A DNA stretch of 64,000 nucleotides from a virus. Lineage: Duplodnaviria > Caudoviricetes. The position numbers and the translations under genes are program-made. The stretch covers positions 540 to 64,539 of IMG/VR virus record IMGVR_UViG_3300028591_000213. One strand, 5' to 3'. Positions 18,543 to 57,813 of this stretch are shown here, piece after piece; the first letter of the stretch is position 1; every line of letters begins with the position of its first letter. Under the pieces are notes generated by a model, which saw only the letters and a program-made list of their open reading frames with translations, was not told the DNA's origin and ran no database searches.

Positions 18543-18561
18543 TTACCTAATTTAACCAATA

Positions 18562-21500: not shown

Positions 21501-21588
21501 TTTAATTCCAAAGGATGGAGAATTTATTAGCCATAAAGTGGAAGATTTTGATAATTATTTCAGCGAAAATGAATTTAAGAGATGTTAA
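18562..21588 (+). CDS. Large hypothetical protein, probably structural
   Basis: 1008-aa ORF co-oriented within the baseplate block. Confidence 0.55.
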   Translation: MNNIDTLKFLLDGKDKIFNVNLRGNRKILPEDDVISTINANDVYENEKSKSNIFRLVISINPFCSNILFNPFTEVIYKEGSTSAYCLNFVDKKTSDLESKNEIIGKRLDFKWTEYEAVRDTQLSNVDHGFDYNCGLDIFNNHLLRSRTFKSVNYSKSYSMQKINRLSPFYGDAYSGVTAIDNIHDNDETMHVYTDNNFNTIDDYLRDKFGIIVSEEVFIPTYYVHDLNQWKIMPMHLYQKYDAYTFDECIENKKLNDNGWYGFSNSSTFSYLNFNVFDKNGNITTRAVGDVDDNNNINVKSNEIFINKTINSKKYCEFIDLYPGRNLYSFTPNYNKYRRRLEYNWNYCLTYPSKSVIRVADYKEFPFLKVINENNTALKALMIDELTENDSGVSVLTVYSVSQHGLQNGDLVNIYKQYEEDDATKNDLVYVNSEVTVIDKYTFQVAKTERNISNEWIELEKAPNNYVTTYKGKNYKVCASKRCNVDDKAQDIYFKRVVNGVECKYYVRKFSRLPNFKFAEEEINDYYLYDEEFNKKRAKEGKETLLYKYSTPTNKKSEFESHIADLGFSKNAYGDNNAEIVFTDDINVSFIKDNLGRPLSEIYLTIIKNNKGYKKWYGFNEYEIETNSEDIEYSHCFGKNNCGFLLSDYYRIMFEKDDVRSINSSNEIGLLKNKETDEIDFYTDNEFYGDLCCYSPIDCEEEVIQKVMNRFNTVQREINIPGNANRFKASKYFKDLVVDEIQDSETNLEYIPSKTRGYFGDYDDGYKLFNGGYAIHSKKVKYGNMSQQTEGYYYLPHYKIQIKNVSGALSTSDGIKYEIYSASKAESSDENVGVFEIKTLENNGFEKNEKLILYKKSTNEYFYITIIKLLTDKKFDCNINNEDGTYISSSYDLINSNNIGDFILLKKHEDTPDYAKLIKDGSCRFGWREVLPNGSENDDVIYPFTNGAFYILKQINFFLRRQDPTEEFLYGLLKNKRYKNLIPKDGEFISHKVEDFDNYFSENEFKRC

Positions 21589-27800: not shown

Positions 27801-28039
27801 TTAAAAATAAATCGATTTTTGATAGGTGGGAAGGAGATTATAATTTTATTGCTTCTCCTGTTTATAGAAATGAATTTAACATTGGAAATTCTTTACCACA
27901 AATTATTGAAGGCAATATTTATATAGATAGAGGCATAAATGCCGCATTTGAAAAACATTTAAAACTACAAGAAGTGAAAACAATGGAAGCATTGACTAAT
28001 TTTGGAAATAATTGGTTTAAAATAGAAGATAATGGCTAG
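24824..28039 (+). CDS. Large hypothetical protein, probably structural
   Basis: 1071-aa ORF, TAATG coupling; C-terminal IYIDRGINAAFEKHLKL. Confidence 0.55.
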   Translation: MRVIKKIIARDDLISKIPGIIPSIKDSWKLPSFIKDCSNIEGEVFFDFDEALKKIDDYGLKSSSLVYEGIFADFISDFKYDENGNYGLIPSDIIIPLLKDENNNIVHITDYTDLYVNIPVTDSFLENVSIKDRDKYDTYFDLSYPVRKQDPHYEYNNEANRYGIYSGSNDNKIEIKILSYKTLSKWYFFAKKRENILKSHNNKKEYSNYIEYNKNENLKEDELYYNLEQLYISRGGDYMYNWMKNNCFLAFTIPFKYSSEWKTSYLYYSQAIKWLKWFEEKDSKYYDSETGKEKKCKDEENCYECNEYVRLGGHELYVLLKEWVENSTSEININNTNSASLNLYINFQTSIDDLGEMSIFSSKWENDVDYHNTLSDDEMEEGSEGGTIVYLPYKTDEETGKITVINDTVMIKNGNHTGYKHNDFYENTFNEDDWINTYTNYYTNERPEEFATSAISAYAYSSLYNEVVYNPSENPEMFKKYISPIMIKFVLINNRTYFVIDGKYVEMCYESSSIANLDLKSKSKLRIYKDGDLEYAVLNGNRYYVEVDKNGIERVYFLKNYNCKDEGCAVNSNVSYIMFNKNLCLINDDGSTVIYDGHNENVYYTLDGIFELDGKTYYIKNDASGYKIVKQYESYEDDGKVYYYFEEISLDDLVDKSIDSIKFEIISGNPMVVVEYNYYVNYTNKITGITDSKLELLRRREITTDELGNELPGYFKSVIDYDKIENEYNSNANRYYTDVSANVPDEDYSLENDKGQYYNSPYEGCTLDILYRVGEVSNLVYDTYLSTGETQYFIGNIIDNIEFYYTDVDLNRVDDFSPDRKFEAKDDDALSVIKECEEAKNNYSGNSFLCSKMMCNITYYMGAVLKKVDDKYEIVKQYHTGIKYVDSAFVTLENCLYYLNDGSKFVVKYYYLDPFKYSTYNQDDKISSTMMMSKFEVEPMIFYYKKGYSKSEEIFAVDNTGNCEDNVGKNSINLTLSAITKIDANDDKTTLEFKNKSIFDRWEGDYNFIASPVYRNEFNIGNSLPQIIEGNIYIDRGINAAFEKHLKLQEVKTMEALTNFGNNWFKIEDNG

Positions 28040-28943
28040 TACAGGTTTATATGGAATTACAGTTCCTTCGAGAATAACTACAGATGATATAGATATATTT
28101 TATTCATATCGTGAGACAAGAAATAGTGATAATGCAGGAAAGACTGCATTTATGAAATTACCATCATCAATATTAAGCGATGTATTGTGTGATGGAGAAA
28201 CGAAACCAGTTGGCAATGTGCTTGAGGGTATGTATAATTTGAAATTACCTCTTCAATATTTTAACCAAAAGGGCTATTATACTGTATATATTAAACCAAA
28301 AGAGCTTAGAGCCGTTATTGCTGACGTTAGCAATCTTGCAGCTTACCCAAATGTTAGGGGTATAATACTTGATAGAAATACTGAATCCAATGATATTTCA
28401 TTAAGAAATAAATTATTGGAAAATAATTCTTTGGTTGGCTATAGGATAATTTATATAGATGATAATGGCAATAGGGAGAATTATTTTAGATTAATAACCA
28501 GTAATAATAGAAGTGAGCCAATAATTCAAGCTTCAAATATGTCAAGTAATAAATCATATGTATATAGATATAATGATTCTTCAACGTTATCATTTATTAC
28601 TGTAACTCCATCAAGTGCACCCAGCTTTAAAGCAAGTGCTGCGCCATATATAGGCAAGCCAACGCAACAAATATTGATTGTTAACACTTTATTTGAACCA
28701 ATAATGCTTGATATTGAAATTACTGATAAGGATATTAATACTATTACAACAATGCTTGAAGGCTCTCAGCTTAGAGATTTGGACAATGGCTTAGTTACAA
28801 CGTTTGATGAAAATAATCAAATTTACCACCAATCTGAGCATTATACCATTAAAGACTCAGCAACAGGCGTGCCTGTTTATGAGGTTAAAAAAGAAAAAAC
28901 TGATTCTATTGATTTTAGTCAAAGCATAGAAGACAAAATTTAA
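28032..28943 (+). CDS. Hypothetical protein, probably baseplate-associated
   Basis: 303-aa ORF overlapping the previous gene. Confidence 0.55.
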   Translation: MASTGLYGITVPSRITTDDIDIFYSYRETRNSDNAGKTAFMKLPSSILSDVLCDGETKPVGNVLEGMYNLKLPLQYFNQKGYYTVYIKPKELRAVIADVSNLAAYPNVRGIILDRNTESNDISLRNKLLENNSLVGYRIIYIDDNGNRENYFRLITSNNRSEPIIQASNMSSNKSYVYRYNDSSTLSFITVTPSSAPSFKASAAPYIGKPTQQILIVNTLFEPIMLDIEITDKDINTITTMLEGSQLRDLDNGLVTTFDENNQIYHQSEHYTIKDSATGVPVYEVKKEKTDSIDFSQSIEDKI

Positions 28944-28954
28944 ATTCTTAAAAA

Positions 28955-31900
28955 ATGGCAAAATATATAAAATCATATAGTAATTATGTGCTTAAATCAA
29001 AGCATCAAGATACTTCCAATGGAACTATATTTGAAAGGGATATAACAACCATTGGAGGTAGGGACCAATTTGCTAGAAATCAAGTGCCTATTTATAGAAG
29101 TGGCAATTTTATAATAACTATAAATGGTGATAATGAAAAATATAAAAAGACTTTTTCAAAACCTTGGTATGAAAATGAATCTGGTAAAATATGGAATAAT
29201 GACATACTTAAAAATTATGAAAAAGATGAAAAAGCATCTTTTGATGAGAAATTAGTTATTAAAAAAGATTACTTTGATTTAAGAGATTATGCTTATTATG
29301 GTTCTTGCTCAGAATTAATGAGAGCTTCTATAACGGATATTCTTAAAAAATATCCCGGTGAAATTTTTGTGCCATATAGAAAAGAATTTGAAGGTATAAA
29401 TCAATTTAGTGAGGAGAGAGAAATACAATATGATGAAGATGTAGCCAAATCAGTTTTTGGCGATAATTATAGCACATATCTAAGCGGTTTATATGATACA
29501 TATACATCTTTTGATATAGATACATATTCTTCTACTGAAATTCCATATGAGTATAGATTAACAGAAGAAGAGGAAAAAAATGTGGAGCTAGGAATACCAT
29601 TTACTAGAAGATATGGCCTTTTAACTGATAGCACTGGTAAATATGCCCCATTAACAAGTTGCACAGATACTGAACGTACAAATCCTATAGCAATAGATGT
29701 TGTTGCTATGGATAATCCTTTTGGCATTAACATACACGATAGATTTGTTCCAAAAGGCGCAAATCCATTGAAATATTTTGCCGAAGGAGGTATAGAAAAC
29801 TACGTTGCTTATAAATTTCACGAGTCAGAAGCAGATTATGAAAAAATTGAAGATAAATTTTATGATGGCTCTTGGAATTTAGAAGATGAATATAAAATAG
29901 AAATCATATCTTCTGTTTTTAATGGGTTGGACGAATGTGGAAAAAGTGAAAAAGTTTTTACGGTAAATAATGTAGGAAATTGCGAAGATAATACTGGTAG
30001 CAATAGTATTAGCTTAATGTTATCTGCGTCTACCAAATTTGAGGTAAGTGGAGGAACAACTGAGTATTGTTTATCTCCTGGCAAATATATTGGATATGTT
30101 GAACTTGGTTTTAAAAAGACAAACTATGATTTTTCTGTATCTTCCGGAGAACATGAAGATATTTGCGAAGATGATGATTGCGAAAATGGTATCAAATTCA
30201 CCAATGAGGATGTAAGAGAAACTGTAATAGTAGAATCGCATTCAATAGATAATTTTGATGAAAAACTTAAGATATATTTGTTTGTTGGCCAAGATAAGAA
30301 CATTAAATATTTTGTAGAGAATTTTGGTACTTTAAATAATGAAGGTATAGATAATAGAAATAATTTTGTATGGAGAATAAGGCCAAATAAAAAAATCATT
30401 AACAATTTCTTTAATAATGAGTTAGATTTGTTTGAAAAGATTTTATTAAATAGAAATAGTGACCCAATATATACTTCATATTTTGAGATTGTTGATGAAA
30501 ATAAATTTGGATATTATACTTACACAAAATCATTTACATTCCCAACAACATATGGTGGATATAATTTGGGTTCTAGCGGCCCACTATATTCTCAATTCGT
30601 AAGCGAAATGTCTAAAATTTCTAATTTTTATGATGAGAGATTTAGTGATAACTTATGGCGTTCAATGACGCATGAGGCCATTAAAAATTTCGATTGGACC
30701 GATTCTAAAGAAAAAGCTGATGGCACTAACAAGATACAAAAGACAATAAGGCTATTTGGAAGAGAATTTGATGAAATTAAAAATTATATTTCTGCCATTA
30801 AAAATAACAATAATGTTACATATGATGATGTAAATAACCTACCTGATTATTTCTACACAGATAAATTAGAAGATGAAGGGTGGGATGTTTTTCAAATTAA
30901 GCCATTAATTTTATCTGAATATATAAATGATTTGGATGGAATAACAGCAGATTTGGATAAATTGTTTTGTAGTACTGAGCTTTATTTAATAAATAAAGAT
31001 GGTGAATATGAAAAATGTTCATTGGAAGAAGCAAGAAAAAATAATTGCTTCTATACACTTAAAAATGAAATATCAAAGAAATATACCATTAAAAGAAATT
31101 TCATCGGACAATTTGATGATACTTATATAACACCTTATTCAAAAGACATTATAACAGGAATTAGAGTAATAAAGGAAGAGGGCGAAGATACAGAATATTC
31201 TTTTGGCTTTCCTGACTTTAGTGGTAATTCTTGCATTATTGATGGCGGTATTAATGTTGACGTTACATTTAAGAATGGAGAAAAGGTTGCAAATGGCTAT
31301 CATAACAATTGCGGAAATTTGATAAAGATATATTCGAACGAAAATAAATATACTCCTTCTGATGTTAATACCGAATTCATGAAAAGGTTAATTATGAATA
31401 GTAGGGATTTATTATCGCATAAAGGAACTATTGATGGTATGGAAATGATGCTTTCTCTGTTTGGCCTAAAGAGCAAAAATTTTGTATTTAAAAATGAAAC
31501 ATATTTCAAATGTAAATCAGTAAGTGGAGAAACAACATTAGAATTAACTAGTGGCGATACTTGGAATAATGGAGAAAGATATTATAATATTAATGATTTG
31601 GATAAAATATATGATTATGACATAAAAGAATATTCAATGTTTACAACATATATTGAAGATGAATATCTGCCAGAAAAAGATATGTTTAGAATTGATTGGA
31701 TAAATTCCAAAAAATTAATGACTTATAATACAGATGATTTTAAAAATGGAATTTATATAGATTATCAAGGTTTACCAGTTTCATTTGAAAATGAATATGT
31801 AGTTAATGAAGATAATGAAATGGTAGTTACTGGTAGAAAATTATATCCTCATTTTGAAAGCACTGCAATTTATGATGGAAACCCATACTACCAAATGAAT

Positions 31901-33310
31901 GGTGGGTGGCTTCAAAAAAGGCCTTTTGCTTTTGATTTAGATAATAATATTATATCAGAGGATAATGAATCTAACAGTAGAAAAAATAAAGCATTATTTA
32001 CTGAAACTGTTAGAAATATATACTGTGTAAATAATTTACAAAGTCTATTAACAGACGTTACTGTTGGAGGAAAACAGGGCGATATTATACAAGTATTAGA
32101 TATATCCGGAAGATATGCTATTGTTGATGGAATCGTGTATCAATTGTTAAGCGAGAGTGATTCTCAAAAAGGAGAAAGCTTTTTCTATGCCACAGTTGCT
32201 GATAATTCAGTAGTAATAGGAAAAACATTGTTCACTGATTATGTTATAATTAGCAATCCATATGTGGATGATAAAAAACAAACAATAAATTTAAATGGAG
32301 GCTATTATAGCAATAAAAAAATCAAAGTCTATGTTTTAGAAAGCTATAATGAAACTGGAGATAAAATATATTCAATGGATGCATATTCGAGTGACGCATC
32401 AATAAGCACGTTTACTGTTTTTGAAAATGGTAAATACATGAGCGGAGATACTTATACAAATTATTTCATGCTTAATAATCCTGATTTTAGGGGAGAATTA
32501 AGTATGTTAGGATGGCAGCAGCTTAAAGAAGATGAGTTTGAATATTATAAATTAAATGCAATTGAAAATTATTATAATGGCAATAATCCTCATTATGGGC
32601 ATATGAATTATGATAATGGTCACGAATATTTGACATATTTTTCTCAGTTGTTTAAACATTCAATAAATAATAATTTATTGGACTATAGACAATTTAAAGG
32701 AAGTGATTATGATATATTAGATGAAATTGTTGATGAAGATGGCAGTATTATAAGAGACAGTTATAGAAATATAGGATTTAAAAATTTAATTGATACTGAC
32801 GAAACTTGTAATATAGATTACGACAAATATTTAAGATTGGATAATAAATGCCACTTTTTTGGCTCATTTATAGAGAGACAAGAGTCACCTAAATTTGTAG
32901 AGAAAAATGCTATTTGCAACCCATTTAAAAAACGTAGTTTGAACGATGATACAGAAATAAATAGTGACGTTGCTTCATATAATATATCGGATATTATAAG
33001 GAAAAATTATATCAATTCTTCATCGAGCAATATTAAAATTGAGGATTTAAGATATGCAAAAATAAATGAGGCCATAGGTGAGGATGGTTTGGAAAATGAT
33101 GATTCATTTGCTGAAAAAGTAAATGGCATTACTGACCAAATAGTAAACACAAAAAGGATGGAGATAGATTTCTTCATAAGAGGCCATAAAGAATATACAA
33201 AAGAATGGCTTGAAGAGGTTAAGTATATAGACTCTATAGTAATGCCTTATTTAACACAAATGATGCCCTCTAATGTCATATGCAGGGTAAACTATAAAAC
33301 AGTTGTTTAA
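28955..33310 (+). CDS. Large baseplate/tail structural protein
   Basis: 1451 aa; HKGTIDGMEMMLSLFG resembles the KGT..G...LL..FG motif of baseplate wedge / tail-I-like proteins. Confidence 0.6.
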   Translation: MAKYIKSYSNYVLKSKHQDTSNGTIFERDITTIGGRDQFARNQVPIYRSGNFIITINGDNEKYKKTFSKPWYENESGKIWNNDILKNYEKDEKASFDEKLVIKKDYFDLRDYAYYGSCSELMRASITDILKKYPGEIFVPYRKEFEGINQFSEEREIQYDEDVAKSVFGDNYSTYLSGLYDTYTSFDIDTYSSTEIPYEYRLTEEEEKNVELGIPFTRRYGLLTDSTGKYAPLTSCTDTERTNPIAIDVVAMDNPFGINIHDRFVPKGANPLKYFAEGGIENYVAYKFHESEADYEKIEDKFYDGSWNLEDEYKIEIISSVFNGLDECGKSEKVFTVNNVGNCEDNTGSNSISLMLSASTKFEVSGGTTEYCLSPGKYIGYVELGFKKTNYDFSVSSGEHEDICEDDDCENGIKFTNEDVRETVIVESHSIDNFDEKLKIYLFVGQDKNIKYFVENFGTLNNEGIDNRNNFVWRIRPNKKIINNFFNNELDLFEKILLNRNSDPIYTSYFEIVDENKFGYYTYTKSFTFPTTYGGYNLGSSGPLYSQFVSEMSKISNFYDERFSDNLWRSMTHEAIKNFDWTDSKEKADGTNKIQKTIRLFGREFDEIKNYISAIKNNNNVTYDDVNNLPDYFYTDKLEDEGWDVFQIKPLILSEYINDLDGITADLDKLFCSTELYLINKDGEYEKCSLEEARKNNCFYTLKNEISKKYTIKRNFIGQFDDTYITPYSKDIITGIRVIKEEGEDTEYSFGFPDFSGNSCIIDGGINVDVTFKNGEKVANGYHNNCGNLIKIYSNENKYTPSDVNTEFMKRLIMNSRDLLSHKGTIDGMEMMLSLFGLKSKNFVFKNETYFKCKSVSGETTLELTSGDTWNNGERYYNINDLDKIYDYDIKEYSMFTTYIEDEYLPEKDMFRIDWINSKKLMTYNTDDFKNGIYIDYQGLPVSFENEYVVNEDNEMVVTGRKLYPHFESTAIYDGNPYYQMNGGWLQKRPFAFDLDNNIISEDNESNSRKNKALFTETVRNIYCVNNLQSLLTDVTVGGKQGDIIQVLDISGRYAIVDGIVYQLLSESDSQKGESFFYATVADNSVVIGKTLFTDYVIISNPYVDDKKQTINLNGGYYSNKKIKVYVLESYNETGDKIYSMDAYSSDASISTFTVFENGKYMSGDTYTNYFMLNNPDFRGELSMLGWQQLKEDEFEYYKLNAIENYYNGNNPHYGHMNYDNGHEYLTYFSQLFKHSINNNLLDYRQFKGSDYDILDEIVDEDGSIIRDSYRNIGFKNLIDTDETCNIDYDKYLRLDNKCHFFGSFIERQESPKFVEKNAICNPFKKRSLNDDTEINSDVASYNISDIIRKNYINSSSSNIKIEDLRYAKINEAIGEDGLENDDSFAEKVNGITDQIVNTKRMEIDFFIRGHKEYTKEWLEEVKYIDSIVMPYLTQMMPSNVICRVNYKTVV

Positions 33311-37971: not shown

Positions 37972-39039
37972 ATGGAACAAATACATTATATTTACAAAAT
38001 TACATTTTTAAAAGGTAGCCTTAAAGGGTTCTATTATATTGGTAAGAGAACATCAGTGATAAGAAAAAAGAAAATGGAATGGGCTAATTTCTCAGACCCA
38101 ATAGAGTGGGCTAAAAATGATGTTATGTTTGATAACTACGCGGGTTCAGGGAAAATACCGAGAGATTACTTCAAAAAATATGGCAAAGAGTTTGGAATTA
38201 CTTTCAATAAAGAAATTATTCTTTTTTCTAAAACATTTGAAAAAAATGCTTTATCTGAGGAAAATATTATAGGTGATAAATATAAATCTGACCCAAAATG
38301 TGTTAATTTAGTTAGGGGAGGAATGTGTGGAGACTCTAGTAAAATGTCTGACAAAGAGCGTAAAACAAAATTCAAAAGAGTTCTTACAGAAGATGGAAGA
38401 AAAAGATTATCTGAATTTCATAAAGAAAGATGCTCTAAAATTCCTATGCCATGGAAAGGTAAAAAGTTAACAGACAAAGAAAAGGAACAAATTTCTAAAA
38501 AACTAAAAGAATATTTTAAAACACATAAAGCGCCTCTACTTGGAAAACATCTTTCTGAAGAAACAAAAGAAAAACTTTCTAAATCTTTAAAGGAGTTTTA
38601 TATTAAAAATCCAGATAGAAGGCCTTTTGGTAGAAAACCAACTGAAAGGTCTAAAATGCTGAATAGTAAGACTCATAAAGAACTATGGAAAAATAAAGAA
38701 TATCGTGAAAAAATGATAAGTTCTTTAAAAAAGTATTGGGCCACGCACGATTCACCAATTATTGGCACTCACTTGACAGAAGAAAGAAAAAAGAAATTAA
38801 GTGAATATTTTAAAGGTAGGCCAAATTATAAAAACAAAGGAGAAAATAATGGTATGTATGGAAAAATTCCGGCTAACGCTAAAAAAGTTATACAATTAAC
38901 AGAAGAAGATGTATTTATAAAAGAATGGAATTCAATAAGTGAAGCATCTAGAACTCTAAAATTACACTCTTCAAACATATTTAAAGTGTGTGTTGGCGAA
39001 AGAAAAACTTGTGGAGGCTTTCATTGGAAATATAAATAA
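37972..39039 (+). CDS. Free-standing GIY-YIG (Seg-like) homing endonuclease with NUMOD3 repeats and C-terminal NUMOD1 HTH
   Basis: YIYKIT...YYIGKR, YAGSGK, repeats GKKLTDKEKEQIS / GKHLSEETKEKLS / GTHLTEERKKKLS, KKVIQL...KEWNSISEA...CGGFHWKY. Confidence 0.85.
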   Translation: MEQIHYIYKITFLKGSLKGFYYIGKRTSVIRKKKMEWANFSDPIEWAKNDVMFDNYAGSGKIPRDYFKKYGKEFGITFNKEIILFSKTFEKNALSEENIIGDKYKSDPKCVNLVRGGMCGDSSKMSDKERKTKFKRVLTEDGRKRLSEFHKERCSKIPMPWKGKKLTDKEKEQISKKLKEYFKTHKAPLLGKHLSEETKEKLSKSLKEFYIKNPDRRPFGRKPTERSKMLNSKTHKELWKNKEYREKMISSLKKYWATHDSPIIGTHLTEERKKKLSEYFKGRPNYKNKGENNGMYGKIPANAKKVIQLTEEDVFIKEWNSISEASRTLKLHSSNIFKVCVGERKTCGGFHWKYK

Positions 39040-39708: not shown

Positions 39709-39991
39709 AAAGTATTATGCGCGAAAAATATAGTGAAGAAAATGTAACATGGTCATATATTGAAAAATATGTACCATATATTAAAACAATTTGGTCAATG
39801 CAAAAAAATGGCATACCAAAATATACCTTTATAATTGAAGAGAAAAACTAAAATAAATAGGGAACGATATGCCTGTTGATACAAGTTCCCTTTTCTGAAA
39901 AAATATACAAAAATGAGGAATTTGCATAAACAATTCCTCATTTTTTTTGCATATCTACTGATATTTATATATAAATAAAATTAAAGATTAT

Positions 39992-41278
39992 ATGAAATAT
40001 TTAAAACTATTTGAAACTACAGCTCAGTATGAAGAAGTTAGGCAAAACTAAGTTTTGCCTAACGTATCATTATGTGAAGATGCTCCAACTACCGTGCATT
40101 ATAATCCTTATGTGCCGCAACATGATTATTCCCAAGACTACTTGACATTCGTTGCATTAAGTCAAGGCACAATAACAATAAATTATGATGAAGCTGATGG
40201 CTCTCCAACTACCATTTCATACAGCACAGATGATGGTACAACTTGGACTCAAATAACAACAACCACAGAACCATATACCATAACGACCCTTAATGTTGGT
40301 GACAAATTACTTTTAAAAGGAAATAATTCAAGTTATTATTATAGTGCTTTAATTAGAGGAACTGCCACATTTGAAGTTTGTGGCAACATAATGTCCTTAA
40401 TCTATGGAGATAACTTTGTCGGGCAAACAACTCTAACAGAAAGCGGTACTTTCGATTCATTTTTTTATGGTAACATTAATCTTATAAGTGCTGAAAATCT
40501 TGTATTACCTGCTACAACGTTAGCAAGTGGCTGTTATCAAAGTATGTTCCAAGGTTGCACCTCGTTAACGACAGCGCCTGAATTACCTGCTACAACGTTG
40601 GCAGACAACTGTTATAATAGTATGTTCGATGGTTGCACCTCGCTAACGACAGCGCCTGAATTACCAGCAGAAACGTTAGCAGACGACTGTTATGATGGTA
40701 TGTTCAGTGGTTGCGACTTGTTAACGACAGCACCTGAATTACCTGCTACAACGTTGGCAGACTACTGTTATAATAGTATGTTCTATGGTTGCACCTCGTT
40801 AACGACAGCGCCTGAATTACCTGCTACAACGTTGGCAGACTACTGTTATAGTAATATGTTCGAAGGTTGCACCTCGTTAACGACAGCACCTGAATTACCC
40901 GCTACAACGTTAGCAAGTGGCTGTTATCAAAGTATGTTCATAGGCTGCACCTCGTTAACGACAGCGCCTGAATTACCTGCTACAACGTTAGAAGAATCAT
41001 GTTATAATAGTATGTTCAGTGGTTGCACCTCGTTAACGACAGCGCCTGAATTACCTGCTACAACGTTAGCAGAATCATGTTATTATCAGATGTTCGATGG
41101 TTGTTCTAATCTAAATAGCATTACTTGTCTTGCAACTGATATAAGTGCAAGTAACTGTACGCAAGCTTGGGTAAATAGTGTTTCATCAAGTGGTACATTT
41201 ACCAAGGCGGAAAGTATGAAAAGTTGGACAAGAGACATTAATGGCATACCAACCTATTGGACGATAAAAGATGCATAG
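39992..41278 (+). CDS. BspA-like leucine-rich-repeat protein A; in-frame TAA at codon 20 (40049-40051)
   Basis: MKYLKLFETTAQYEEVRQN*VLPNVSLC...; 7 full plus 1 partial 26-aa (78-bp) LPATTLxxxCYxxMFxGCTSLTTAPE repeats; the ORF track starts at the TTG after the stop. Confidence 0.8.
40037..40063. promoter_or_regulatory. Perfect 27-bp palindrome (13-bp arms, 1-nt centre) carrying the TAA/TTA codon, copy A
   Basis: GTTAGGCAAAACT-A-AGTTTTGCCTAAC; arms are exact reverse complements. Regulatory role is inferred. Confidence 0.75.
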
Positions 41279-41482
41279 TAACACATATAAAAGGATAGTT
41301 CAAAAGGACTATCCTTTTTATATAATAAAGTGTGATGGATAAAAAGGTATCATAGCATTTGGCAAAAAAATCTGCAAGAACATTATCGTTTCTTGCAGAT
41401 TTGCATATTTATTCAAAAGGAGCGAATTGTGTCAACAGGTATATAATTCCCTTATCTTATTAAATAGATAGCTCCCTTTATT

Positions 41483-43238: not shown

Positions 43239-43380
43239 GCAATAATAGGAAAATTTATAACGAATTTTACAACCGAAGTTGATTATAATGCGGTGAAAGA
43301 CAATTTGATAAAGCCACACGTTAGCTTAACAAAAGACAATAACTAAGTACATTATCTGCCATTTGACCTATATGCATGGC
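43239..43380 (+). pseudogene. Remnant of an LRR-gene-type leader peptide
   Basis: GKFITNFTTEVDYNAVKDNLIKPHVSLTKDNN*VHYLP aligns with KYLKLFETTAQYEEVRQN*VLPNVSLCEDAPTTVHYNP; no ATG, internal TAA. Confidence 0.55.
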
Positions 43381-43520: not shown

Positions 43521-43553
43521 AAAGCGAAGTCATTATTTTTGGCTTCGCTTTTT
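43521..43553. terminator. Bidirectional hairpin terminator overlapping the stop of the 43533 gene
   Basis: AAAAGCGAAGTC-ATTATTTTT-GGCTTCGCTTTT. Confidence 0.6.
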
Positions 43554-44945
43554 TATATATTTAATTGAACCACAGTCATATATTTTATAAGATTTTAAAG
43601 AAGTATAAGTATTACTTTTTTTTGTTCTCTCTATTTTGTTTCCATTTATAAAGGTATAAGATGGTTTAATATATTCATCTTTTTTAAATCCACAAATGGT
43701 AAAAACATTATTATCATTTGACCATCTTCTATCAACAAAAGTAATTAAAGACTTATATTGATAATTTTTTTCAAAAAATGAAATTAATTTAGAGCATATT
43801 CCATCGCAAATATAGTTTATATCTGTTGCTAACCTTTTTAAAATATAATTTTCTCCACTCTTTAAAAAAGATGCTACTCCTATTAGTTCGCCATTATAAA
43901 ATGCCCCTATATTAATACTACTTTTTGTAAAGCTTTCTATATGATTTTTTTTCAAAAATTTATTTGAATCTTCTTTCAATATTTCTTTTATATCACATTT
44001 TCTAGCCATTATTTTTTCTTTTTTATTTAGCCCAAAAATATGTAATATTTTTGATTTTACAATATCATTTTTATTTAGCCATTCATCTTCAAATATTTGA
44101 AGCAGTTTAATTCCATTTTTAAGGCATTCTATAGTTTTACTTAAATGATAGTTTTTGTCTTTTCCGAATTTTTCAGAATGCCATCGTAATCCATTATATT
44201 CTATAGCTATATTAAATTTAGGGGCGAAAATGTCTATTTCTTTCTTAGAGTTTGCAAACAAATTCCTTGTTCTTTCAATTATTTCTATATTATTCTCTCT
44301 TAAAAAGTCTATTATTTCTTGTTCTTGATTCGATACGGAGTGACTACATTTTGGGCATCCATGGCCATGAAGATGACTACTTATTTCTTGAGAAAATATT
44401 CCATGTTCTGGACAGATAATATCAATTTTTTCCTTTTCGTTTTTAATATCTTTTTCAATATACTTGTATTTCGTTTTGTGCTTTTCATTTGCCCGTCTAA
44501 CAAATTCATCAAATCTAATAATTCTATTTTTGTTTTTTGCTTCATTGGCGCATTTTGGACAGCCCCTTCCACTCAAATGATTCTGTGGTGTTTGCCAAAA
44601 TTCACCGTGTTCCGGACAGTTTATACAAATTTTATCTTCACGCGTTTTATATTCTACTTTTGAATAATCATATTTGTTTCCATGAACAGCAATTGCTTTT
44701 TCTAAAAAATTATTAAAAGACTTAATTTTACTATTCTTTATTCTTTCATTTCCACATTGTCTACATCCCTTTCCGTGTAAATGCTCTTGAGCAACTTGCC
44801 AAAATTCGCCATGTCTTGGGCAAATTATGCAAATCTTTTCGTACATTTTTACAATGTTAGATTTTGAGTAGTCATACTTATCGCCATGAACTTGTTTTGC
44901 CCTTTTTAAAAATTCATCTTTTGAAACTATTCTACTCATTGGCAT
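43533..44945 (-). CDS. Zinc-finger-repeat homing-endonuclease-like protein (DUF723-type repeats, PD-(D/E)xK domain, GNAT-like C-terminus)
   Basis: Three repeats VHGDKYDYSK....ICPxHGEFWQ..HL.G.GCPKC; EIDIFAPKFNIAIEYNGLRWHS; KRLAT..TFVDRRWS..YDCG. Confidence 0.78.
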   Translation of the reverse strand: MPMSRIVSKDEFLKRAKQVHGDKYDYSKSNIVKMYEKICIICPRHGEFWQVAQEHLHGKGCRQCGNERIKNSKIKSFNNFLEKAIAVHGNKYDYSKVEYKTREDKICINCPEHGEFWQTPQNHLSGRGCPKCANEAKNKNRIIRFDEFVRRANEKHKTKYKYIEKDIKNEKEKIDIICPEHGIFSQEISSHLHGHGCPKCSHSVSNQEQEIIDFLRENNIEIIERTRNLFANSKKEIDIFAPKFNIAIEYNGLRWHSEKFGKDKNYHLSKTIECLKNGIKLLQIFEDEWLNKNDIVKSKILHIFGLNKKEKIMARKCDIKEILKEDSNKFLKKNHIESFTKSSINIGAFYNGELIGVASFLKSGENYILKRLATDINYICDGICSKLISFFEKNYQYKSLITFVDRRWSNDNNVFTICGFKKDEYIKPSYTFINGNKIERTKKSNTYTSLKSYKIYDCGSIKYIKKRSQK

Positions 44946-50345: not shown

Positions 50346-50353
50346 GGGAATGA
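50334..50353 (+). repeat. 20-bp direct repeat, copy 1 (GAAAAAAATTAAGGGAATGA)
   Basis: Identical to 52207-52226; the pair brackets the 50350 endonuclease gene. Confidence 0.85.
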
Positions 50354-52218
50354 ATTTTATAAGTACTGAAGAATTTATAAAAAAAGCAAAATTAATGCAC
50401 GGCGACGAATATGATTATTCAAAAACGCAGTGCATTAATTGTTATAGTAAGGTTTGTATAATATGCCCAAAACACGGTGAGTTTTGGCAAAGTGTATATA
50501 GTCATTTATCTGGGCATGGATGCCCAAAATGTAAATGCGAAAAAATGTGGAATTCTAGAGGAAGAATGACAACAGAACATTTTATTGATGCGGCAAGAAA
50601 AATTCACGGAAATAAATATGATTATTCAAAAGTTGAATATAAAAACGCAAAGGAAAAAGTTTGTATAATTTGTTCAGAGCATGGGGAATTTTGGCAAACT
50701 CCATATAACCATTTAAAGGGGCATGGGTGCAGAAAATGTTTCAATGAAATGTCATCAAAAAAACAAAAATCAACGATTAAAGAATTTATTGATAAAGCTA
50801 AAGCAATACATGGAAATAAATATGATTATTCAAAAGTAAATTATATTAATAACCAAACAAAGATTTGCATAATATGTCCGGAACACGGTGAGTTTTTTCA
50901 AACGCCAAGTTCTCATTTGGCCGGAAATGGGTGTAAAATGTGTTCCAAAGTTAAAGAAAACAAGTACACAACCGAAACATTTATTAAGGCATTAAAAAAA
51001 ATCCATGGAAACAAATATGATTATTCTAAAGTTAAATATAATGGGTGCGATGAGTATGTTACTGTTATTTGTCCAAAGCATGGAGAATTTAAAATTAGGG
51101 CAAGGCATTTAATTGGAGGAGTTGGTTGTAAAAAATGTGGCATTGAAAAAAGGAAAACCAAAAGGCTAAGTAATTCAGATGAATTTATAGAGAAAGCAAG
51201 AAAAATACATGGCAATAAATATGATTATTCAAAAGTAGAATATATAAATGCTCATACAAAAGTGTGTATTGTATGCCCCGAACATGGAGAATTCTGGATG
51301 ACGCCAAATGACCATTTAAGTAATGCTTATGGATGTAGAAAGTGCTGTAAAAATATATCTAAAGCGGAAAATAGCATTGCAGAAATCATTAAAGAGTATG
51401 GTATAAAAGTAGAACAAGGGAATAGAAAAATTTTGAATGGAAAAGAAATAGATATATTTTTACCAGATTATGACATAGGGATAGAGTATGATGGACTTAA
51501 ATGGCATTCAGATGAATATTGCAAAGATAGATTGTATCATTTTAAAAAAACAAATGAATGCTTAAATAAAGGAATAGGTTTAATTCATATTTTTGAGGAC
51601 GAATATTATATGCACAAAGAAATTGTTTTATCAAAAATAAAACATTTACTTCACATTAATAATGAACTTGAAAAAATAGATGCTAGAAAATGTATTGTAA
51701 ACGAAATAACAAACAAAACTGCTTCAATTTTTTTTGAAAAAAATCACATACAAGGGTTTTCAAAATCTACTGTTTATTTAGGATGTTTTAAAGATAAAGA
51801 ACTTATTGGCGCTATGAGCTTTATAAAAAGGAAAGAAAAATGTTGGGAGTTAAATCGTTGCGCATCAGATATAAATTATCAATGCAGAGGAGTAATTGGA
51901 AAATTATTATCTTATTTTAAAAAACATTATGAATGGAATACAATAAAAACATTTGCTGATAAAAAATGGATAATTAATGAAAATGAAAATTTATATTCAA
52001 AGCTTGGCTTTAAAAAATGTATTGTCTTAAAACCAGACTACAAGTATTGTAAGGGAAATACAAAAGAAAGAATTAATAAAGATAATTTCAAAAAGAAATT
52101 AATTAATAAAAACCACGACTTGTCATCGTCTATGTCAAAAACAGAAATGGCTAAAAAATTAGGCTATCATAAAATATGGGACTGTGGCTTAATAAAATAC
52201 GTACTTGAAAAAAATTAA
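50350..52218 (+). CDS. Zinc-finger-repeat homing-endonuclease-like protein (five DUF723-type repeats, PD-(D/E)xK domain, GNAT-like C-terminus)
   Basis: IHGNKYDYSKVxY....KVCIICPEHGEFWQ repeats; KEIDIFLPDYDIGIEYDGLKWHS; ELNRCAS..TFADKKW..IWDCG; same architecture as the 43533 gene. Confidence 0.8.
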   Translation: MNFISTEEFIKKAKLMHGDEYDYSKTQCINCYSKVCIICPKHGEFWQSVYSHLSGHGCPKCKCEKMWNSRGRMTTEHFIDAARKIHGNKYDYSKVEYKNAKEKVCIICSEHGEFWQTPYNHLKGHGCRKCFNEMSSKKQKSTIKEFIDKAKAIHGNKYDYSKVNYINNQTKICIICPEHGEFFQTPSSHLAGNGCKMCSKVKENKYTTETFIKALKKIHGNKYDYSKVKYNGCDEYVTVICPKHGEFKIRARHLIGGVGCKKCGIEKRKTKRLSNSDEFIEKARKIHGNKYDYSKVEYINAHTKVCIVCPEHGEFWMTPNDHLSNAYGCRKCCKNISKAENSIAEIIKEYGIKVEQGNRKILNGKEIDIFLPDYDIGIEYDGLKWHSDEYCKDRLYHFKKTNECLNKGIGLIHIFEDEYYMHKEIVLSKIKHLLHINNELEKIDARKCIVNEITNKTASIFFEKNHIQGFSKSTVYLGCFKDKELIGAMSFIKRKEKCWELNRCASDINYQCRGVIGKLLSYFKKHYEWNTIKTFADKKWIINENENLYSKLGFKKCIVLKPDYKYCKGNTKERINKDNFKKKLINKNHDLSSSMSKTEMAKKLGYHKIWDCGLIKYVLEKN

Positions 52219-52226: not shown

Positions 52227-52399
52227 TATACCTGTTGACACAGGCCGCTCCTTTTGAATAAATATGCAAATCTGCAAGAACCTCATCGTTTCTTGCAGAT
52301 TTTTTTGTTAAATGTTATGATACCTTTTTATCCATCCCACTTTATTATATAAAAAGGATAGTTCACTGTTTGAACTATCCCTTATATGTGTGTGCCAAA

Positions 52400-53680
52400 T
52401 TATGCTGCATCTTTCACAGTCCAACCACTTGGAGTACCATTAGTACCTTCTGTCCAATTACTCATACTTGCTGCCTTGGTAAATGTACCACTTGCTGCAA
52501 CACCATTTACCCAATTAGATGTACAGTTAGACGCACTAATGTCAGTTGCAAGACAAGTAATACTATTTAACGAGGTGCAACCATAGAACATACTTTCATA
52601 ACAGCGGTTTGCCAACGTTGTAGCAGGTAGTTCAGGCGCTGTTGTTAACGATGTGCAACCATTGAACATACCACTATAACAGCCGTTTGCCAACGTTGTA
52701 GCAGGTAATTCAGGCGCTGTTGTTAACGATGTGCAACCATTGAACATACCACTATAACAGTCGTCTGCTAACGTTTCTGCTGGTAATTCAGGTGCTGTCG
52801 TTAGACTTGTACAACCATAGAACATCTGATAATAACATTCGCTTGCTAACGTTGTAGCAGGTAATTTAGGTGCTGTCGTTAACGATTTGCAACCATAGAA
52901 CATATTACTATAACAGGAGTATTCCAACTTTGTAGCAGGTAATAATTTAGGTGCTGTCGTTAACGATTTGCAACCATAGAACATGCTATTATAACAGTTG
53001 TCTGCCAACGTTGTAGCAGGTAATAATTCAGGTGCTGTCGTTAACGAGGTGCAACCTTGGAACATATTACTATAACAGCTGTTTGCCAACGTTGTAGCAG
53101 GTAATTTGGGTGCTGTCGTTAATGATGTGCAACCTTTGAACATATTACGATAACAGTTGTCTGCCAACGTTGTAGCAGGTAATGATAGGTTTTTAGCACT
53201 TACCACATTAGTATTACCACTGAATAAGCAATAAAATGCATATTCCTTTCCATTTAGACTTGTTTGGGCTTTAAAATTATAGCCAAACAGTAATGACATT
53301 GCATTACCTTCTACAGAGTATCTAACACCAGTAGCACCACTGAACCTACCAATACCTTTATTTGTTTGTGGTGCCGGTGTTCCTTTCCATAGAACCTTAT
53401 CACCTGCTGCAACAGATATTGTATCTGCACTTGTTACAGCCGACCAATTCTCACCGTTATCCTTTGAGTAAGATAGTGTATTAGCAGTTGTTGAACCACT
53501 CCACTTAATATTTCCGCCACTTGTCACTATCATTGTGAAATAGTCTTGGGAATAATCATGAAAAGGGTTATAATGCACGGTAGTTGGAGCATCTTCACAT
53601 AATGATACGTTAGGCAAAACTTAGTTTTGCCTAACTTCTTCATACTGAGCTGTTGTTTTAAAAAGTTTTAAGTATTTCAT
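52400..53680 (-). CDS. BspA-like leucine-rich-repeat protein B; in-frame TAA at codon 20 (53623-53621)
   Basis: MKYLKLFKTTAQYEEVRQN*VLPNVSLC...; 7 full plus 1 partial LPATTLxxxCYxxMFxGC repeats. Confidence 0.8.
53609..53635. promoter_or_regulatory. Perfect 27-bp palindrome carrying the TAA/TTA codon, copy B
   Basis: Plus strand GTTAGGCAAAACT-T-AGTTTTGCCTAAC, i.e. TAA on the coding minus strand. Regulatory role is inferred. Confidence 0.75.
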
Positions 53681-53885
53681 ATTATTTTATATTTTTATAT
53701 AAATATCAGTAGATATGCAAAAAAAAAATGAGGAGTTGCATAAACAATTCCTCATTTTTGTATTTTTATTCAGAAAAGGGAGATTGTGTCAACAGGTATA
53801 TAATTACCTTATGAATAATGCCTCTTATTAAGATAAGTGGTATTTTTTTGTTTTATAGAATATTTATAGTAAAAGTTTTTTATAC

Positions 53886-54477: not shown

Positions 54478-57400
54478 ATGGGTAATTATTTGAAATTATT
54501 TAATACTCAAGAGGATTATAACAAGCACAAGGAGAGCGCATCTACAATGCCAAATGTTTCACACTGTATAGATAATATAAATGTATATTTGGAAGAATGC
54601 GCCCCTTCAATAGCATATGAACTTATAGGTAATCCTTCTTATCCGTCCACAATTAATGGAATGGATGAATCGTTTGATATAACATTTACTTGTAAAAAAA
54701 CAACAAACACCATAGTTTGTTCAACAATCGTTACCAATGAAACAAATACCGTAACGGTATATATTGGAAAAAATACAAGTACTGAAACTGACAGGGTAAT
54801 AAGTGATACATTTAACTATAATGGATTGCTTATACCATATACAATTACACAATATAAACGTTGCACAGCAAATACAGTTTATGAATTAAATGGCACTCCT
54901 TCTTATCCAAGTGAAATAGAAGGTGATGTTGATTCATTTAATTTGACATTTAGTTATAGAAAAATAGTTACAGATAAAAATTGTAATGAAACCGTAACTA
55001 CCGGTAGTGATACTACTGTCATATATGTTGGTGTTAACCCAAATAGCGGTACATCACGAATAATATCAGATTCATATAACTACAGCGGCATGAGCGTGCC
55101 TTATACTGTCACACAGAATAAAATGTGTACTGCCGGTATAGTATATGAACAAGTTGGTGATGCCACTTATCCAAGCGAAATAGAATATAATGTTTCAGCA
55201 TTTAATTTATCATTTAGCTATAAGAAAATAAATGTAGATAAATATTGTAACGAAACCGTAATAGAAACCAGTAGTGTTACCACTTCAATAACTGTAGGAG
55301 AGAATTCTCTATATGAAGACAGAACAATAAGTAGTAGCTATACATTTAATGGCATAGTTATTAACTATTCATTGGTTCAGAAAAAGAATAATCATTATCA
55401 AATAGTAAATACATTTAATGTAAGAAGTACAAGCAATAATACTAACATCGCTTCAAATACTACTCCAATAGATTGCATAGAAATAGATAATACAGTATAT
55501 AGAACAGTTAGTAGTGGATTTAGATTTAGCACTACAGGTTCTCATACTGTTAAATATTCTTTGAAAAACGCAATAGAAACTGGAGGAGGAATATTTGGTG
55601 GATGCGAAGATTTAACAAATTCAGTTATTGAAGAAGGAGTAGCCAAAATTGGCAATTCTTTATATGCCGAGTGCAATAATCTGTCAAGCGTTACAATACC
55701 TGAAAGTACCACAATAATTGATGATGGGGCATTCTTTGCATGTCCAAATTTATCAAAAGTAAATAGTGAAACATCTTATACGGTTAATATACCAAATAAT
55801 GTAACAACTATTAATAATGATGTGTTTAGTAACTGTACAAAAATTAAAACGGTTAATTTTAATGATGATTCCTCATTAACAACCATTGGAAATGAGGCAT
55901 TTAGTAGATGTGACATGCTTGAAACAATAAACATACCAAGCGGAGTTACAAGTATTGGCAACAGTGCGTTTAAAGCATCAACCGGCCTCACGAGCGTTTA
56001 TCTTAATCCGGTAGAGCCACCAATAATTGGAGCATCAGCATTTACCGAAAATGCAGACGACAGAAAAATATATGTTACATGCTATAGCATTAACACATAT
56101 AAAGCAGACGAAGATTGGAGCGAATATACAAGTGGAATAGTATCAGAAGATGGTTGTCCGTTGGTTGCAACATATAACGTTACATCAACAACGGAAGCTA
56201 CAGCATTAAGGGCCATATGGTACAGCGAAAATATAGAGTCTATGGAAATAGATGGTGTAGAATTGTCAAGTCCTGTTACAAGTTATACATTTGATACAAT
56301 AGGAATACATGAAGTTAAATATTATCCTAAAGACCAAACTGTCACTTATTCAGGCGTTACGTTTGGCGCAAGTGCAACAGTCGTACCAGATTATATGTTC
56401 CATAATATTGATAAGTTAATTAGTATAGATATTCCAGATAGCTTTACAACTATCGGAGAACGTGCTTTTCACGGATGTAGTGGGCTAACAACAATACATT
56501 TTGGACAAAGAGTCAATAACTTTAGCACATATGGCGTTTTTGGAAATTGCACAAGTTTACCTGTTGTAAATAATATTAGATACGCAGATACATATGCCGT
56601 TGAAGCTGTTGACAAAACACTTAGCTCATATACAATAAAAGATGGTACAAAATTTATTGGGCGTAATTGTTTTGCAAGCTGTAGTGGACTTACAAGCGTT
56701 AATTTGCCTGATAGTCTTATAAAGTTCGAAACCAATGCTTTTTGGAAATGTAGTGGTCTCACAAGTGTTACAATACCAAATGGAGTAACACACATTGGAG
56801 GTGGAGCTTTCTATTATTGCACTAGCTTAACAAATATAAATATACCAAATAGTGTTACTGGTATATACAGCGGAGCATTCCGAGACTGTAGTGGATTAAC
56901 AAGTGTAACCATACCTGATAGCGTAACATATGTTGATGGAGATATATTTAGTGATTGTACGAGTTTACCGGTAGAAAATAACATTAGATATGCCGATACA
57001 TTTGTGGTCGAAGCTACTGATAAAACTTTATCAACATATACAATAAAAAATACAACAAGATTTATTGGTAACAGCTCTTTCAGTGGTTGTAGTAATCTTA
57101 CAAGCATAACAATTCCAAGTAACGTAACAAGCATTGGTGGCAGCGTTTTCTCTAACTGTAGCAATCTTACAAGTATAGTCATACCTGACAACGTTACATC
57201 TGTTGGCAGTGCTATATTTGCTAATTGTACAAGTTTAACATCTGTTACCATGTCGCCAAACATCACGGTAATTGGCCAAGATGCTTTCAAAGGTTGCAGT
57301 AGTTTAACTTCTGTTAATTTGTCAGATAATATAACATCAATTGGCGATGGAGCTTTTTCGGGCTGTACAAGTCTAAGTAGTTTAACAATTCCATCCGGCT

Positions 57401-57813
57401 TAACATCAATATCAAAATATATTTTCTATAATTGTAGTGGCCTTACAAGTATAATAATACCAGATAGCGTTGTAACTATCGCCTCTCAAGCTTTTTATTG
57501 TTGTAGTGGCCTTACAAGTATAAATATACCAAATAGTGTTGTAACTATCGCCTCTCAAGCTTTTTATTGCTGTAGCGGTCTTATTAGCGCAACAATAGGC
57601 AGTGGCGTGACATATATAGCCATGAATGCTTTCTATAACTGTAGTGGGCTTACAGGCATAACTATTGAAAGAACAACACCTCCAACATTGGTAGTAAATG
57701 CTTTAACCAATACCAATAATTGCCCAATATATGTCCCAGCAGCTTCGGTTGACACATATAAGGCAGCAAGTGGGTGGAGCAGTTATGCAAGTAGAATTCA
57801 GCCAATTTCATAG
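54478..57813 (+). CDS. Large BspA-like (LRR_5) protein with three N-terminal ~88-aa repeats
   Basis: Leader MGNYLKLFNTQEDY...MPNVSHC; YExxGxxxYPSxI repeats at 264-nt spacing; many IPxSVTxIGxxAFxxCxxLTS repeats; C-terminal IYVPAASVDTYKAASGWSSY. Confidence 0.85.
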   Translation: MGNYLKLFNTQEDYNKHKESASTMPNVSHCIDNINVYLEECAPSIAYELIGNPSYPSTINGMDESFDITFTCKKTTNTIVCSTIVTNETNTVTVYIGKNTSTETDRVISDTFNYNGLLIPYTITQYKRCTANTVYELNGTPSYPSEIEGDVDSFNLTFSYRKIVTDKNCNETVTTGSDTTVIYVGVNPNSGTSRIISDSYNYSGMSVPYTVTQNKMCTAGIVYEQVGDATYPSEIEYNVSAFNLSFSYKKINVDKYCNETVIETSSVTTSITVGENSLYEDRTISSSYTFNGIVINYSLVQKKNNHYQIVNTFNVRSTSNNTNIASNTTPIDCIEIDNTVYRTVSSGFRFSTTGSHTVKYSLKNAIETGGGIFGGCEDLTNSVIEEGVAKIGNSLYAECNNLSSVTIPESTTIIDDGAFFACPNLSKVNSETSYTVNIPNNVTTINNDVFSNCTKIKTVNFNDDSSLTTIGNEAFSRCDMLETINIPSGVTSIGNSAFKASTGLTSVYLNPVEPPIIGASAFTENADDRKIYVTCYSINTYKADEDWSEYTSGIVSEDGCPLVATYNVTSTTEATALRAIWYSENIESMEIDGVELSSPVTSYTFDTIGIHEVKYYPKDQTVTYSGVTFGASATVVPDYMFHNIDKLISIDIPDSFTTIGERAFHGCSGLTTIHFGQRVNNFSTYGVFGNCTSLPVVNNIRYADTYAVEAVDKTLSSYTIKDGTKFIGRNCFASCSGLTSVNLPDSLIKFETNAFWKCSGLTSVTIPNGVTHIGGGAFYYCTSLTNINIPNSVTGIYSGAFRDCSGLTSVTIPDSVTYVDGDIFSDCTSLPVENNIRYADTFVVEATDKTLSTYTIKNTTRFIGNSSFSGCSNLTSITIPSNVTSIGGSVFSNCSNLTSIVIPDNVTSVGSAIFANCTSLTSVTMSPNITVIGQDAFKGCSSLTSVNLSDNITSIGDGAFSGCTSLSSLTIPSGLTSISKYIFYNCSGLTSIIIPDSVVTIASQAFYCCSGLTSINIPNSVVTIASQAFYCCSGLISATIGSGVTYIAMNAFYNCSGLTGITIERTTPPTLVVNALTNTNNCPIYVPAASVDTYKAASGWSSYASRIQPIS

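Follow-up and report, generated by a model that had tools for sequence, protein, structure and literature searches.

The stretch of DNA analysed here, referred to as the window, is 64,000 nucleotides long and runs from base 540 to base 64539 of one virus contig of 64,539 nt, IMG/VR record IMGVR_UViG_3300028591_000213. It carries two paralogous genes for BspA-type leucine-rich repeat (LRR) proteins, one near 40 kb and one near 53 kb (hereafter the 40-kb and 53-kb genes), whose N-terminal leader is interrupted by a TAA stop codon lying within a palindrome. A first-pass annotation made from the sequence had proposed that this palindrome works as an ON/OFF phase-variation device, and its reading of the locus, with TAA as codon 20 of both genes at the exact centre of a perfect 27-nt palindrome, was borne out along with its coordinates.

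The palindrome in the two window genes

The two copies in the window are identical 27-mers (Table 1) with a 13+1+13 layout that is codon-symmetric (GTT AGG CAA AAC TAA GTT TTG CCT AAC), the codons pairing around the centre codon as GTT/AAC, AGG/CCT and CAA/TTG. On this codon layout, and just as the earlier reading had it, inverting the palindrome keeps V-R-Q-N and V-L-P-N and alters the central base alone, giving TTA (Leu) for TAA. TTA would yield the full-length protein (ON) and TAA a stub of 19-25 residues (OFF) across the genes described below. The element can equivalently be viewed as a 12-bp stem with TAA or TTA as its loop, and folding it as RNA and as DNA returned a 12-bp stem with a 3-nt loop.

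Such a palindrome is not expected by chance (0 matches in 100 shuffles), and the three perfect inverted repeats in the 64.5-kb contig with arms of at least 10 bp and a loop of at most 1 nt are all copies of it. The codons used are rare in this genome (AGG 27%, AAC 19%, TTG 26%), with a joint expectation of ~0.1%; the choice of rare codons in the arms means that codon bias did not produce the palindrome.

Downstream of the TAA, 408 codons are open in the 40-kb gene and 406 in the 53-kb gene, in agreement with the more than 400 claimed earlier, and the two leaders are 93% identical over 133 nt. The third copy lies in the 539 contig bases that precede the window (G000:C1:185-211) and is an identical 27-mer that reads TTA, or Leu, in the sense of its gene (ON). 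This contig-start gene (locus L003, G000:C1:1-283) is on the minus strand, has its own upstream region, is cut by the contig end and matches the first part of the 40-kb gene at ~95% identity, a repeat at which the assembly probably broke.

Both alleles among homologous copies

We collected homologous copies by three routes, namely a pattern scan of JGI metagenomes with a 19-nt core carrying W at its centre, protein-based retrieval from IMG/VR, and retrieval from ENA and Logan contigs. Together these gave 14 distinct genes with a perfect core, AGGCAAAACT-W-AGTTTTGCCT, and arms of 10-13 bp, which come from the 64.5-kb phage fragment and from sheep and ruminant-gut metagenome contigs. Six of them carry TAA (the 40-kb and 53-kb genes, G001/L035 on a related 64.9-kb contig, L005, L009 and L110b) and eight carry TTA (the contig-start gene L003, L023, L008, L020, L025, L107, L109 and L110a), so that 43% are OFF. 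A TTA/TAA polymorphism with conserved arms in homologues, set by the first-pass annotation as a test of its proposal, is therefore present. The centre base is A or T in 14/14 genes, with no other base found. One OFF gene, L110b, was found without ascertainment bias and lies 1.6 kb from the ON gene L110a on a 375-kb contig.

The copies fall into three leader sub-types (…EEVRQN, …EEARQN and …YI[Q/N]DRQN), each of which includes both states. Little beyond a 21-nt core is shared between the sub-types, while leaders of the same sub-type within one genome are near-identical over ~130 nt. Where a locus was present in two independent assemblies, its state was identical each time.

Beyond these copies, the palindromic core is absent from GTDB genomes, and the protein relatives found in ruminant metagenome-assembled genomes (MAGs) have other N-termini. 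Three complete genomes of 349-363 kb and two partial large contigs from IMG/VR contain the gene family without the palindrome, which confines the element to a sub-lineage. An exact look-up of the read-through ON form of the 40-kb protein (P0001) returned no match.

Recurrence, arm dependence and constraint

We left the core out and built a maximum-likelihood tree on the flanking sequence, 120 nt on the upstream side and 420 nt on the downstream side. The most parsimonious history on this tree has 6 state changes, well-supported branches alone force at least 3, and ON and OFF genes cluster no better than with shuffled labels. Some of the flips are recent: the 40-kb OFF gene is sister to the ON gene L023 (96% identity over 521 columns, with a synonymous divergence, dS, of 0.07 in the N-domain), and the OFF gene L110b and the ON gene L116 have identical DNA for ~105 nt upstream of the core.

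The stop also tracks the palindrome. None of ~22 family leaders that lack a perfect palindrome, four of which have an imperfect one (AAT in L108; AGA in L116, L093 and L118), carries it at this codon, and among protein-ascertained copies 4/8 perfect palindromes are OFF, compared with 0/~22 other leaders (Fisher p ~0.003). Stops were seen only where the arms reach at least 11 bp.

No second lesion was found in the six OFF genes. Their bodies contain 189-408 open codons, with no further in-frame TAA anywhere in the genes, and the short leader peptides ahead of the stop still conform to the family consensus. Ratios of nonsynonymous to synonymous divergence (dN/dS) for OFF-OFF pairs (0.26-0.49, at dS 0.55-1.4) are indistinguishable from those for ON-ON pairs (0.29-0.51). 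The OFF genes are thus not dead; they are intact and under purifying selection, and either the OFF state is short-lived on an evolutionary scale or OFF genes are expressed in some other way. As at contingency loci, ON and OFF alleles are found in close relatives, the motif lies inside the gene and its arms are identical. Together, these findings give us high confidence that the element is a recurrent, site-specific stop/Leu toggle. The ON/OFF phase-variation reading that had been proposed gains support from them too, as both alleles exist, scattered on the tree, and the OFF genes are intact and constrained.

The LRR gene family

Three window LRR genes score above the PF13306 (LRR_5) gathering score of 27.7 bits, with 34.4 bits (2.4e-08) for the 40-kb gene, 36.4 bits (5.7e-09) for the 53-kb gene and 441.6 bits for the gene near 54 kb. 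The LRRs of the 40-kb gene are encoded by 78-nt repeats. An AlphaFold2 model (predicted local distance difference test score, pLDDT, 92.9) consists of a ~45-residue leader, a beta-sandwich with an Asp-box, and BspA-type LRRs; in the leader, residues 4-7 are predicted to form a strand and residues 10-19 a helix, followed by an invariant P-N-V-S. The best PDB matches by Foldseek are the BspA-like LRR proteins 4fs7 and 4gt6 of Bacteroides and Faecalibacterium, and fold searches returned nothing beyond generic BspA-like LRR proteins.

The leader is common to more than 500 homologues, with the consensus M-x-K-Y-L-K-L-F-E-T-H-x-E-Y-E…L-P-N-V-S-Y-C-E-D…V-H-Y-N-P, and nearly all of them read through it with Leu or another residue, often as R-Q-N-L-[V/I]-L-P-N, so Leu is the ancestral state. 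One leader is found joined to differing bodies across homologues, evidence of module shuffling. Complete jumbo-phage genomes each hold roughly 5-10 members of the family. We do not claim the leader as a T4-type capsid-targeting sequence, a candidate that was set aside as the L-x-E motif is unconserved across homologues.

Two further leaders in the window match their earlier descriptions. The third LRR gene has an uninterrupted, non-palindromic leader, and the remnant at 43239 has Leu at the corresponding position (KDN-L-IKPHVS), with a different stop further on; this remnant is an example of a truly dead copy. Elsewhere in the family, one LRR paralogue (L169, G004:C1:189135-190010), from a jumbo phage with a complete genome of 349 kb, has a mid-gene in-frame TAA (…LYENG*SCYF…, the asterisk marking the stop) that is not palindrome-centred, and this is a plain nonsense allele, a background example. 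A G+C-rich family member on a MAG contig binned as Verrucomicrobia (L156:972) has a nine-G run directly upstream of the conserved HDYSADYLTF motif, which may be a slippage tract.

Cassettes and genomic context

LRR cassettes of the window leader sub-type are bracketed by inverted 16-nt boxes, ATACCTGTTGACACAA, which contain TTGACA and lie ~1572-1574 nt apart. The upstream box is followed by a hairpin plus T-run and then by an AT-rich promoter-like block, a layout similar to that of the PeSL (promoter-early stem-loop) cassettes of T4-type phages. The box is also present at G000:C1:303-318 and in L023 and L035. Homology between L023 and the window begins at 39851 and covers the 40-kb cassette, not its flanks; a 120-kb metagenome contig shares the whole cassette without its flanks. 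Since the cassette is common and the flanks are not, we conclude that LRR cassettes move.

Table 1 Features of the LRR genes and their surroundings, in window coordinates
Feature	Position (strand)	Details
Shared upstream part of 40-kb cassette	39860..39991 (+)	Blocks conserved in four-copy alignment
16-nt box, 40-kb cassette	39869-39884 (+)	ATGCCTGTTGATACAA, holds TTGACA-like hexamer
Hairpin and T-run	about 39911-39949 (+)	Upstream of 40-kb gene
AT-rich promoter-like stretch	39960-39971 (+)	GATATTTATATA
40-kb gene leader	39992..40051 (+)	ATG 39992, 19 sense codons (MKYLKLFETTAQYEEVRQN), codon 20 TAA, OFF
Palindrome, first copy	40037..40063	Perfect 27 nt, GTTAGGCAAAACT-A-AGTTTTGCCTAAC; centre (toggled) base 40050, middle of TAA (40049-40051)
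40-kb gene body	40052..41278 (+)	In frame with leader; mechanical open reading frame (ORF) call starts at TTG 40055
Inverted 16-nt box closing 40-kb cassette	41427..41442 (-)	Pairs with 39869-39884
Decayed leader remnant	43239..43370 (+)	…GKFITNFTTEVDYNAVKDNLIKPHVSLTKDNN*VHY…; no ATG, no body, stop at other codon
53-kb gene body	52400..53620 (-)	Mechanical ORF call starts at TTG 53617
Palindrome, second copy	53609..53635	27-mer identical to first copy; centre base 53622
53-kb gene leader	53621..53680 (-)	ATG 53680, MKYLKLFKTTAQYEEVRQN, codon 20 TAA at 53623-53621, OFF
16-nt box pair, 53-kb cassette	52228-52243 (+) and 53784-53799 (-)	Inverted copies
Third LRR paralogue	54478..57813 (+)	1111 aa; same leader family, 0 complementary positions beside centre, no stop
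Homing-endonuclease-like genes around LRR genes	43533-44945 (-), 50350-52218 (+), 37972-39039 (+)	

The genes beside the LRR genes include a primase, HNH homing endonucleases, a gp46/SbcC-like protein and a sigma factor. Two of the three homing-endonuclease-like genes in Table 1 combine DUF723/HNH with an MTES_1575 REase-like domain (one with GNAT in addition) and one is I-HmuI-like; DUF723 genes accompany LRR cassettes in relatives as well.

G+C makes up ~30% of the contig. Its completeness is estimated at ~20%, corresponding to a genome of roughly 320 kb. The genes that mark it as a large T4-like phage encode a baseplate wedge protein, a DnaB-type helicase, the primase, an anaerobic ribonucleotide reductase, the gp46/SbcC-like protein, the sigma factor, an Amidase_3 lysin and several HNH homing endonucleases. 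A 140-kb contig of a 99%-identical relative also encodes gp13, gp32, RecA/UvsX and thymidine kinase, and the largest related contigs measure 349-375 kb. The window stretch is contained in sheep and bovine gut metagenome runs, and GenBank phages gave neither a DNA nor a protein match. The phage that carries the element is T4-like, large (about 320-375 kb) and from the ruminant gut. Downstream of the baseplate-wedge-like gene, five very large ORFs lie in a row at 14616-33310 (+), with lengths of 1008-1451 aa and no PHROG match, and these may be novel tail or fibre proteins.

Proposed mechanism and alternative explanations

We propose that the conserved N-terminal leader of these paralogous BspA-type LRR genes contains a hypermutable element that would toggle reversibly between stop and sense, and in which nine codons, V/A/D-R-Q-N-[L/*]-V-L-P-N, form a perfect inverted repeat with arms of 10-13 bp and one unpaired base. 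During replication, the nascent strand would leave its template for the complementary arm of the opposite template strand, be extended through the centre there and then return, leaving the spacer inverted and A exchanged for T, or T for A, at the centre as the sole change. With several such genes per genome in differing states, progeny would vary in the LRR binding proteins that they make, a form of contingency or bet-hedging. A precedent exists in ORFs of yeast (Saccharomyces cerevisiae), where intermolecular template switching inverts the few-base spacers of inverted repeats whose perfect arms exceed 9 bp, and where such flips are reversible and recur up to five times in one gene (PMC8604942).

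Template switching fits the present element because stops go only with arms of at least 11 bp and the centre is only ever A or T. Against a template-switch criterion of perfect arms of ~10 bp or more and a spacer of at most 5 nt, the element has arms of 10-13 bp and a 1-nt spacer. In the spacer, each allele is the exact reverse complement of the other; with a spacer of 1 nt, only recurrence separates inversion from a plain A/T transversion. The first-pass annotation had named two possible drives, and these fared differently: template switching is favoured by the arms of at least 10 bp and the 1-3-nt spacer, as in yeast, whereas a recombinase is disfavoured, none being encoded nearby. Specifically, no recombinase domains were present in the ORFs between 34 and 58 kb, and we rejected a site-specific invertase switch, as a recombinase gene was not found nearby and the arms abut around a single base. 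Template-switch chemistry, reversibility from OFF to ON, the switching rate and adaptive use of the variation are features that we infer.

On this sequence evidence, we lean towards the view that spacer inversion makes the toggle a working, reversible ON/OFF switch and that it is used as such. More tentatively, and with less than even conviction, we suggest that the 27-nt palindrome is a selected, enzyme-free phase-variation element, with replication flipping its centre at a useful rate and template switching itself keeping the arms perfect. Several points weigh against the switch. Reversal from TAA to TTA is not demonstrable from the tree; two assemblies of a locus always agreed on its state, which rules out extremely fast switching; and the allele states are those of assembled consensus sequences. 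Moreover, 7/14 copies were found by a pattern demanding a perfect core, making the invariance of the core partly a matter of ascertainment, and among protein-ascertained genes with RQNL[V/I]LPN the arms are imperfect in 3/6. One quarter of the possible centre codon pairs of a codon-symmetric palindrome contain a stop, and the stop/Leu pairing could be coincidence. Finally, an adaptive benefit of LRR-protein variation is only inferred.

Other explanations account for parts of the pattern. The palindrome might be a non-adaptive hotspot that persists on some unrelated account, for example because it forms an mRNA hairpin, is bound by a dimeric protein or maintains itself as its arms are homogenised, its flips being a by-product that transiently knocks out redundant paralogues. 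The recurrence data fit this account equally well, the palindrome folds stably as RNA, and redundancy is high, at the roughly 5-10 paralogues per complete genome noted above; in addition, one report (PMC8794818) describes template switching as able to create and maintain hairpins without selection for switching. However, 6/14 palindromic genes are OFF at the consensus level and are constrained like ON genes, where a purely deleterious by-product should be rare, and no other function of the palindrome was found, which is not a sense-strand terminator (no U-run follows it). We consider such a hotspot unlikely, though deserving of attention. A terminator on the antisense strand, which had been weakly flagged, was not adopted: its T-rich tail consists of Glu-Glu codons and is absent from D-type leaders. 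A further possibility is that short-patch gene conversion, perhaps set off by homing-endonuclease cuts, carries ON and OFF states from one paralogue to another in place of in-situ inversion, and the near-identity over ~130 nt of same-sub-type leaders within a genome, the mobility of the cassettes and the HNH homing-endonuclease genes flanking the LRR genes are all compatible with it. The sub-types share little beyond the 21-nt core, yet each has both states, and a first TAA cannot originate by conversion; we therefore think it distinctly unlikely that conversion explains the toggle in place of inversion, although it may contribute.

The stop could alternatively belong to a stable and functional split form, in which a leader of 19-25 codons is translated, the hairpin is melted, ribosomes stop at UAA and reinitiation at the UUG two codons downstream yields an LRR protein without leader. 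TTG does lie 3 nt past the stop in every copy, where the hairpin would otherwise sequester it, and gene callers start there (P0002 and P0051 begin MPNVS); intact and constrained OFF bodies, and OFF states that are stable across assemblies, would also be expected. But this TTG is dictated by the palindrome and occurs equally in ON copies, so it is no specific adaptation, and OFF leaders keep a family peptide consensus that a mere coupling ORF would not need. The predicted strand (4-7) and helix (10-19) that the leader gives the protein in the AlphaFold2 model argue in the same direction, and a split form leaves unexplained that one nucleotide gained the stop on at least 3 occasions. We regard it as improbable. 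Far less probable still is any decoding of the TAA (by an ochre suppressor tRNA, readthrough, a frameshift or a bypass like that of gene 60) or an artefact of assembly or sequencing. In favour of decoding, tRNAs are frequent in jumbo phages, the contig covers only ~20% of the genome, and the AAC before the stop and the AAC/AAT 12 nt later are possible take-off and landing codons. TAA is nonetheless the main stop codon, ending 27/40 long ORFs of the contig; no tRNA gene was found in the contig (~20% of the genome) or in ~150 kb of related loci; and the other frames hit stops within a few codons. Stop-codon reassignment or suppression was rejected on the grounds that in-frame TAA is found nowhere else in OFF genes, that TAA is a common terminator and that no tRNA was found in these sequences, and a T4 gene 60-type bypass on the grounds that joining AAC…AAC/AAT would delete L-V-L-P-N, including the family-invariant P23 and N24. 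No k-mer inside an odd palindrome can equal its reverse complement, and independent assemblies of a locus agreed on its state; both points make the small-k assembly flip envisaged at first unlikely. Ordinary pseudogenes, with one dead allele spread by duplication, seem to us hardly credible: the 93% identity of the window leaders over 133 nt would suit them, but OFF alleles occur in three leader sub-types and not in one clade, the six genes lack secondary lesions at dS of up to 1.4, and both the remnant at 43239 and the ordinary nonsense allele in G004 look different. The tree, the intact bodies and the constraint on them thus contradict the spread of a dead allele that had been raised as an alternative.

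Implications and comparison with known systems

Known heritable ON/OFF switches include repeat slippage, site-specific inversion, cassette conversion and methylation. If the switch by spacer inversion proves true, a palindrome-only stop/sense toggle would be the smallest heritable ON/OFF device and a third basic way to build a genetic switch, beside repeat slippage and recombinase-driven inversion, and it would give a function to inverted-repeat spacer inversion, so far described as a mutational curiosity. A phage burst would then contain virions of differing LRR repertoires, bet-hedging for host range or host manipulation, which would point to programmed binding-protein variation in uncultured rumen jumbo phages. 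Note additionally that phase-variation finders seek simple repeats or invertases and would miss a stop/Leu palindrome, and that gene callers would mis-annotate OFF genes as truncated and starting at the next TTG, as for P0002 and P0051. An in-frame codon-symmetric palindrome centred on TAA/TTA offers a search rule for any genome.

Invertase switches, such as the Gin/G segment of Mu, Cin of P1, Hin of Salmonella and fimS of E. coli, share with the phage element an inversion between inverted repeats that changes protein form, and the inversions of Mu and P1 alter phage binding proteins. These systems, however, depend on a site-specific recombinase acting at sites of 26-34 bp, and the DNA inverted between those sites measures hundreds to thousands of bp, whereas the phage element would invert a segment of 1-3 nt between arms that abut. 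Hypermutable poly-G tracts in receptor-binding-protein genes of Campylobacter Fletchervirus phages, reportedly described by Sorensen et al. in 2021, share a recombinase-free ON/OFF change by replication error, at a structured motif in the DNA near the 5' end of a phage binding-protein gene, with intact ORFs and both states among relatives. There, slipped-strand length change leads to a frameshift, in contrast to the length-neutral A/T transversion at the palindrome centre here.

Template switching at hairpin-forming repeats during replication is also the basis of quasipalindrome mutation hotspots, the classical system being a T4-type phage; Ripley is said to have reported such hotspots in T4 rIIB in 1982. 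A further one is found in E. coli thyA (PMC7202029). Quasipalindrome mutations perfect an imperfect repeat and are one-way, whereas the phage element is already perfect and would change two-way by inversion of the centre alone. Hairpin-loop inversions between short perfect inverted repeats in plastids recur independently, even within species (trnH-psbA, PMC2903610; Lauraceae plastomes, PMC6824564); they have no switch function and lie in non-coding spacers, whereas the phage element lies in a coding leader. Inverted-repeat spacer inversion in yeast (Abraham and Hazkani-Covo 2021, PMC8604942) shares the arms within an ORF, the tiny spacer, the unchanged arms and the two codon states. The yeast inversions exchange amino acids in single-copy genes and were taken to feed parallel evolution, not to act as a switch, whereas the phage element exchanges stop and Leu, is codon-symmetric and multi-copy, and is OFF in 43% of copies. 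The toggle is therefore best classed as a combination of known things, contingency loci and inverted-repeat spacer inversion, in a new variant.

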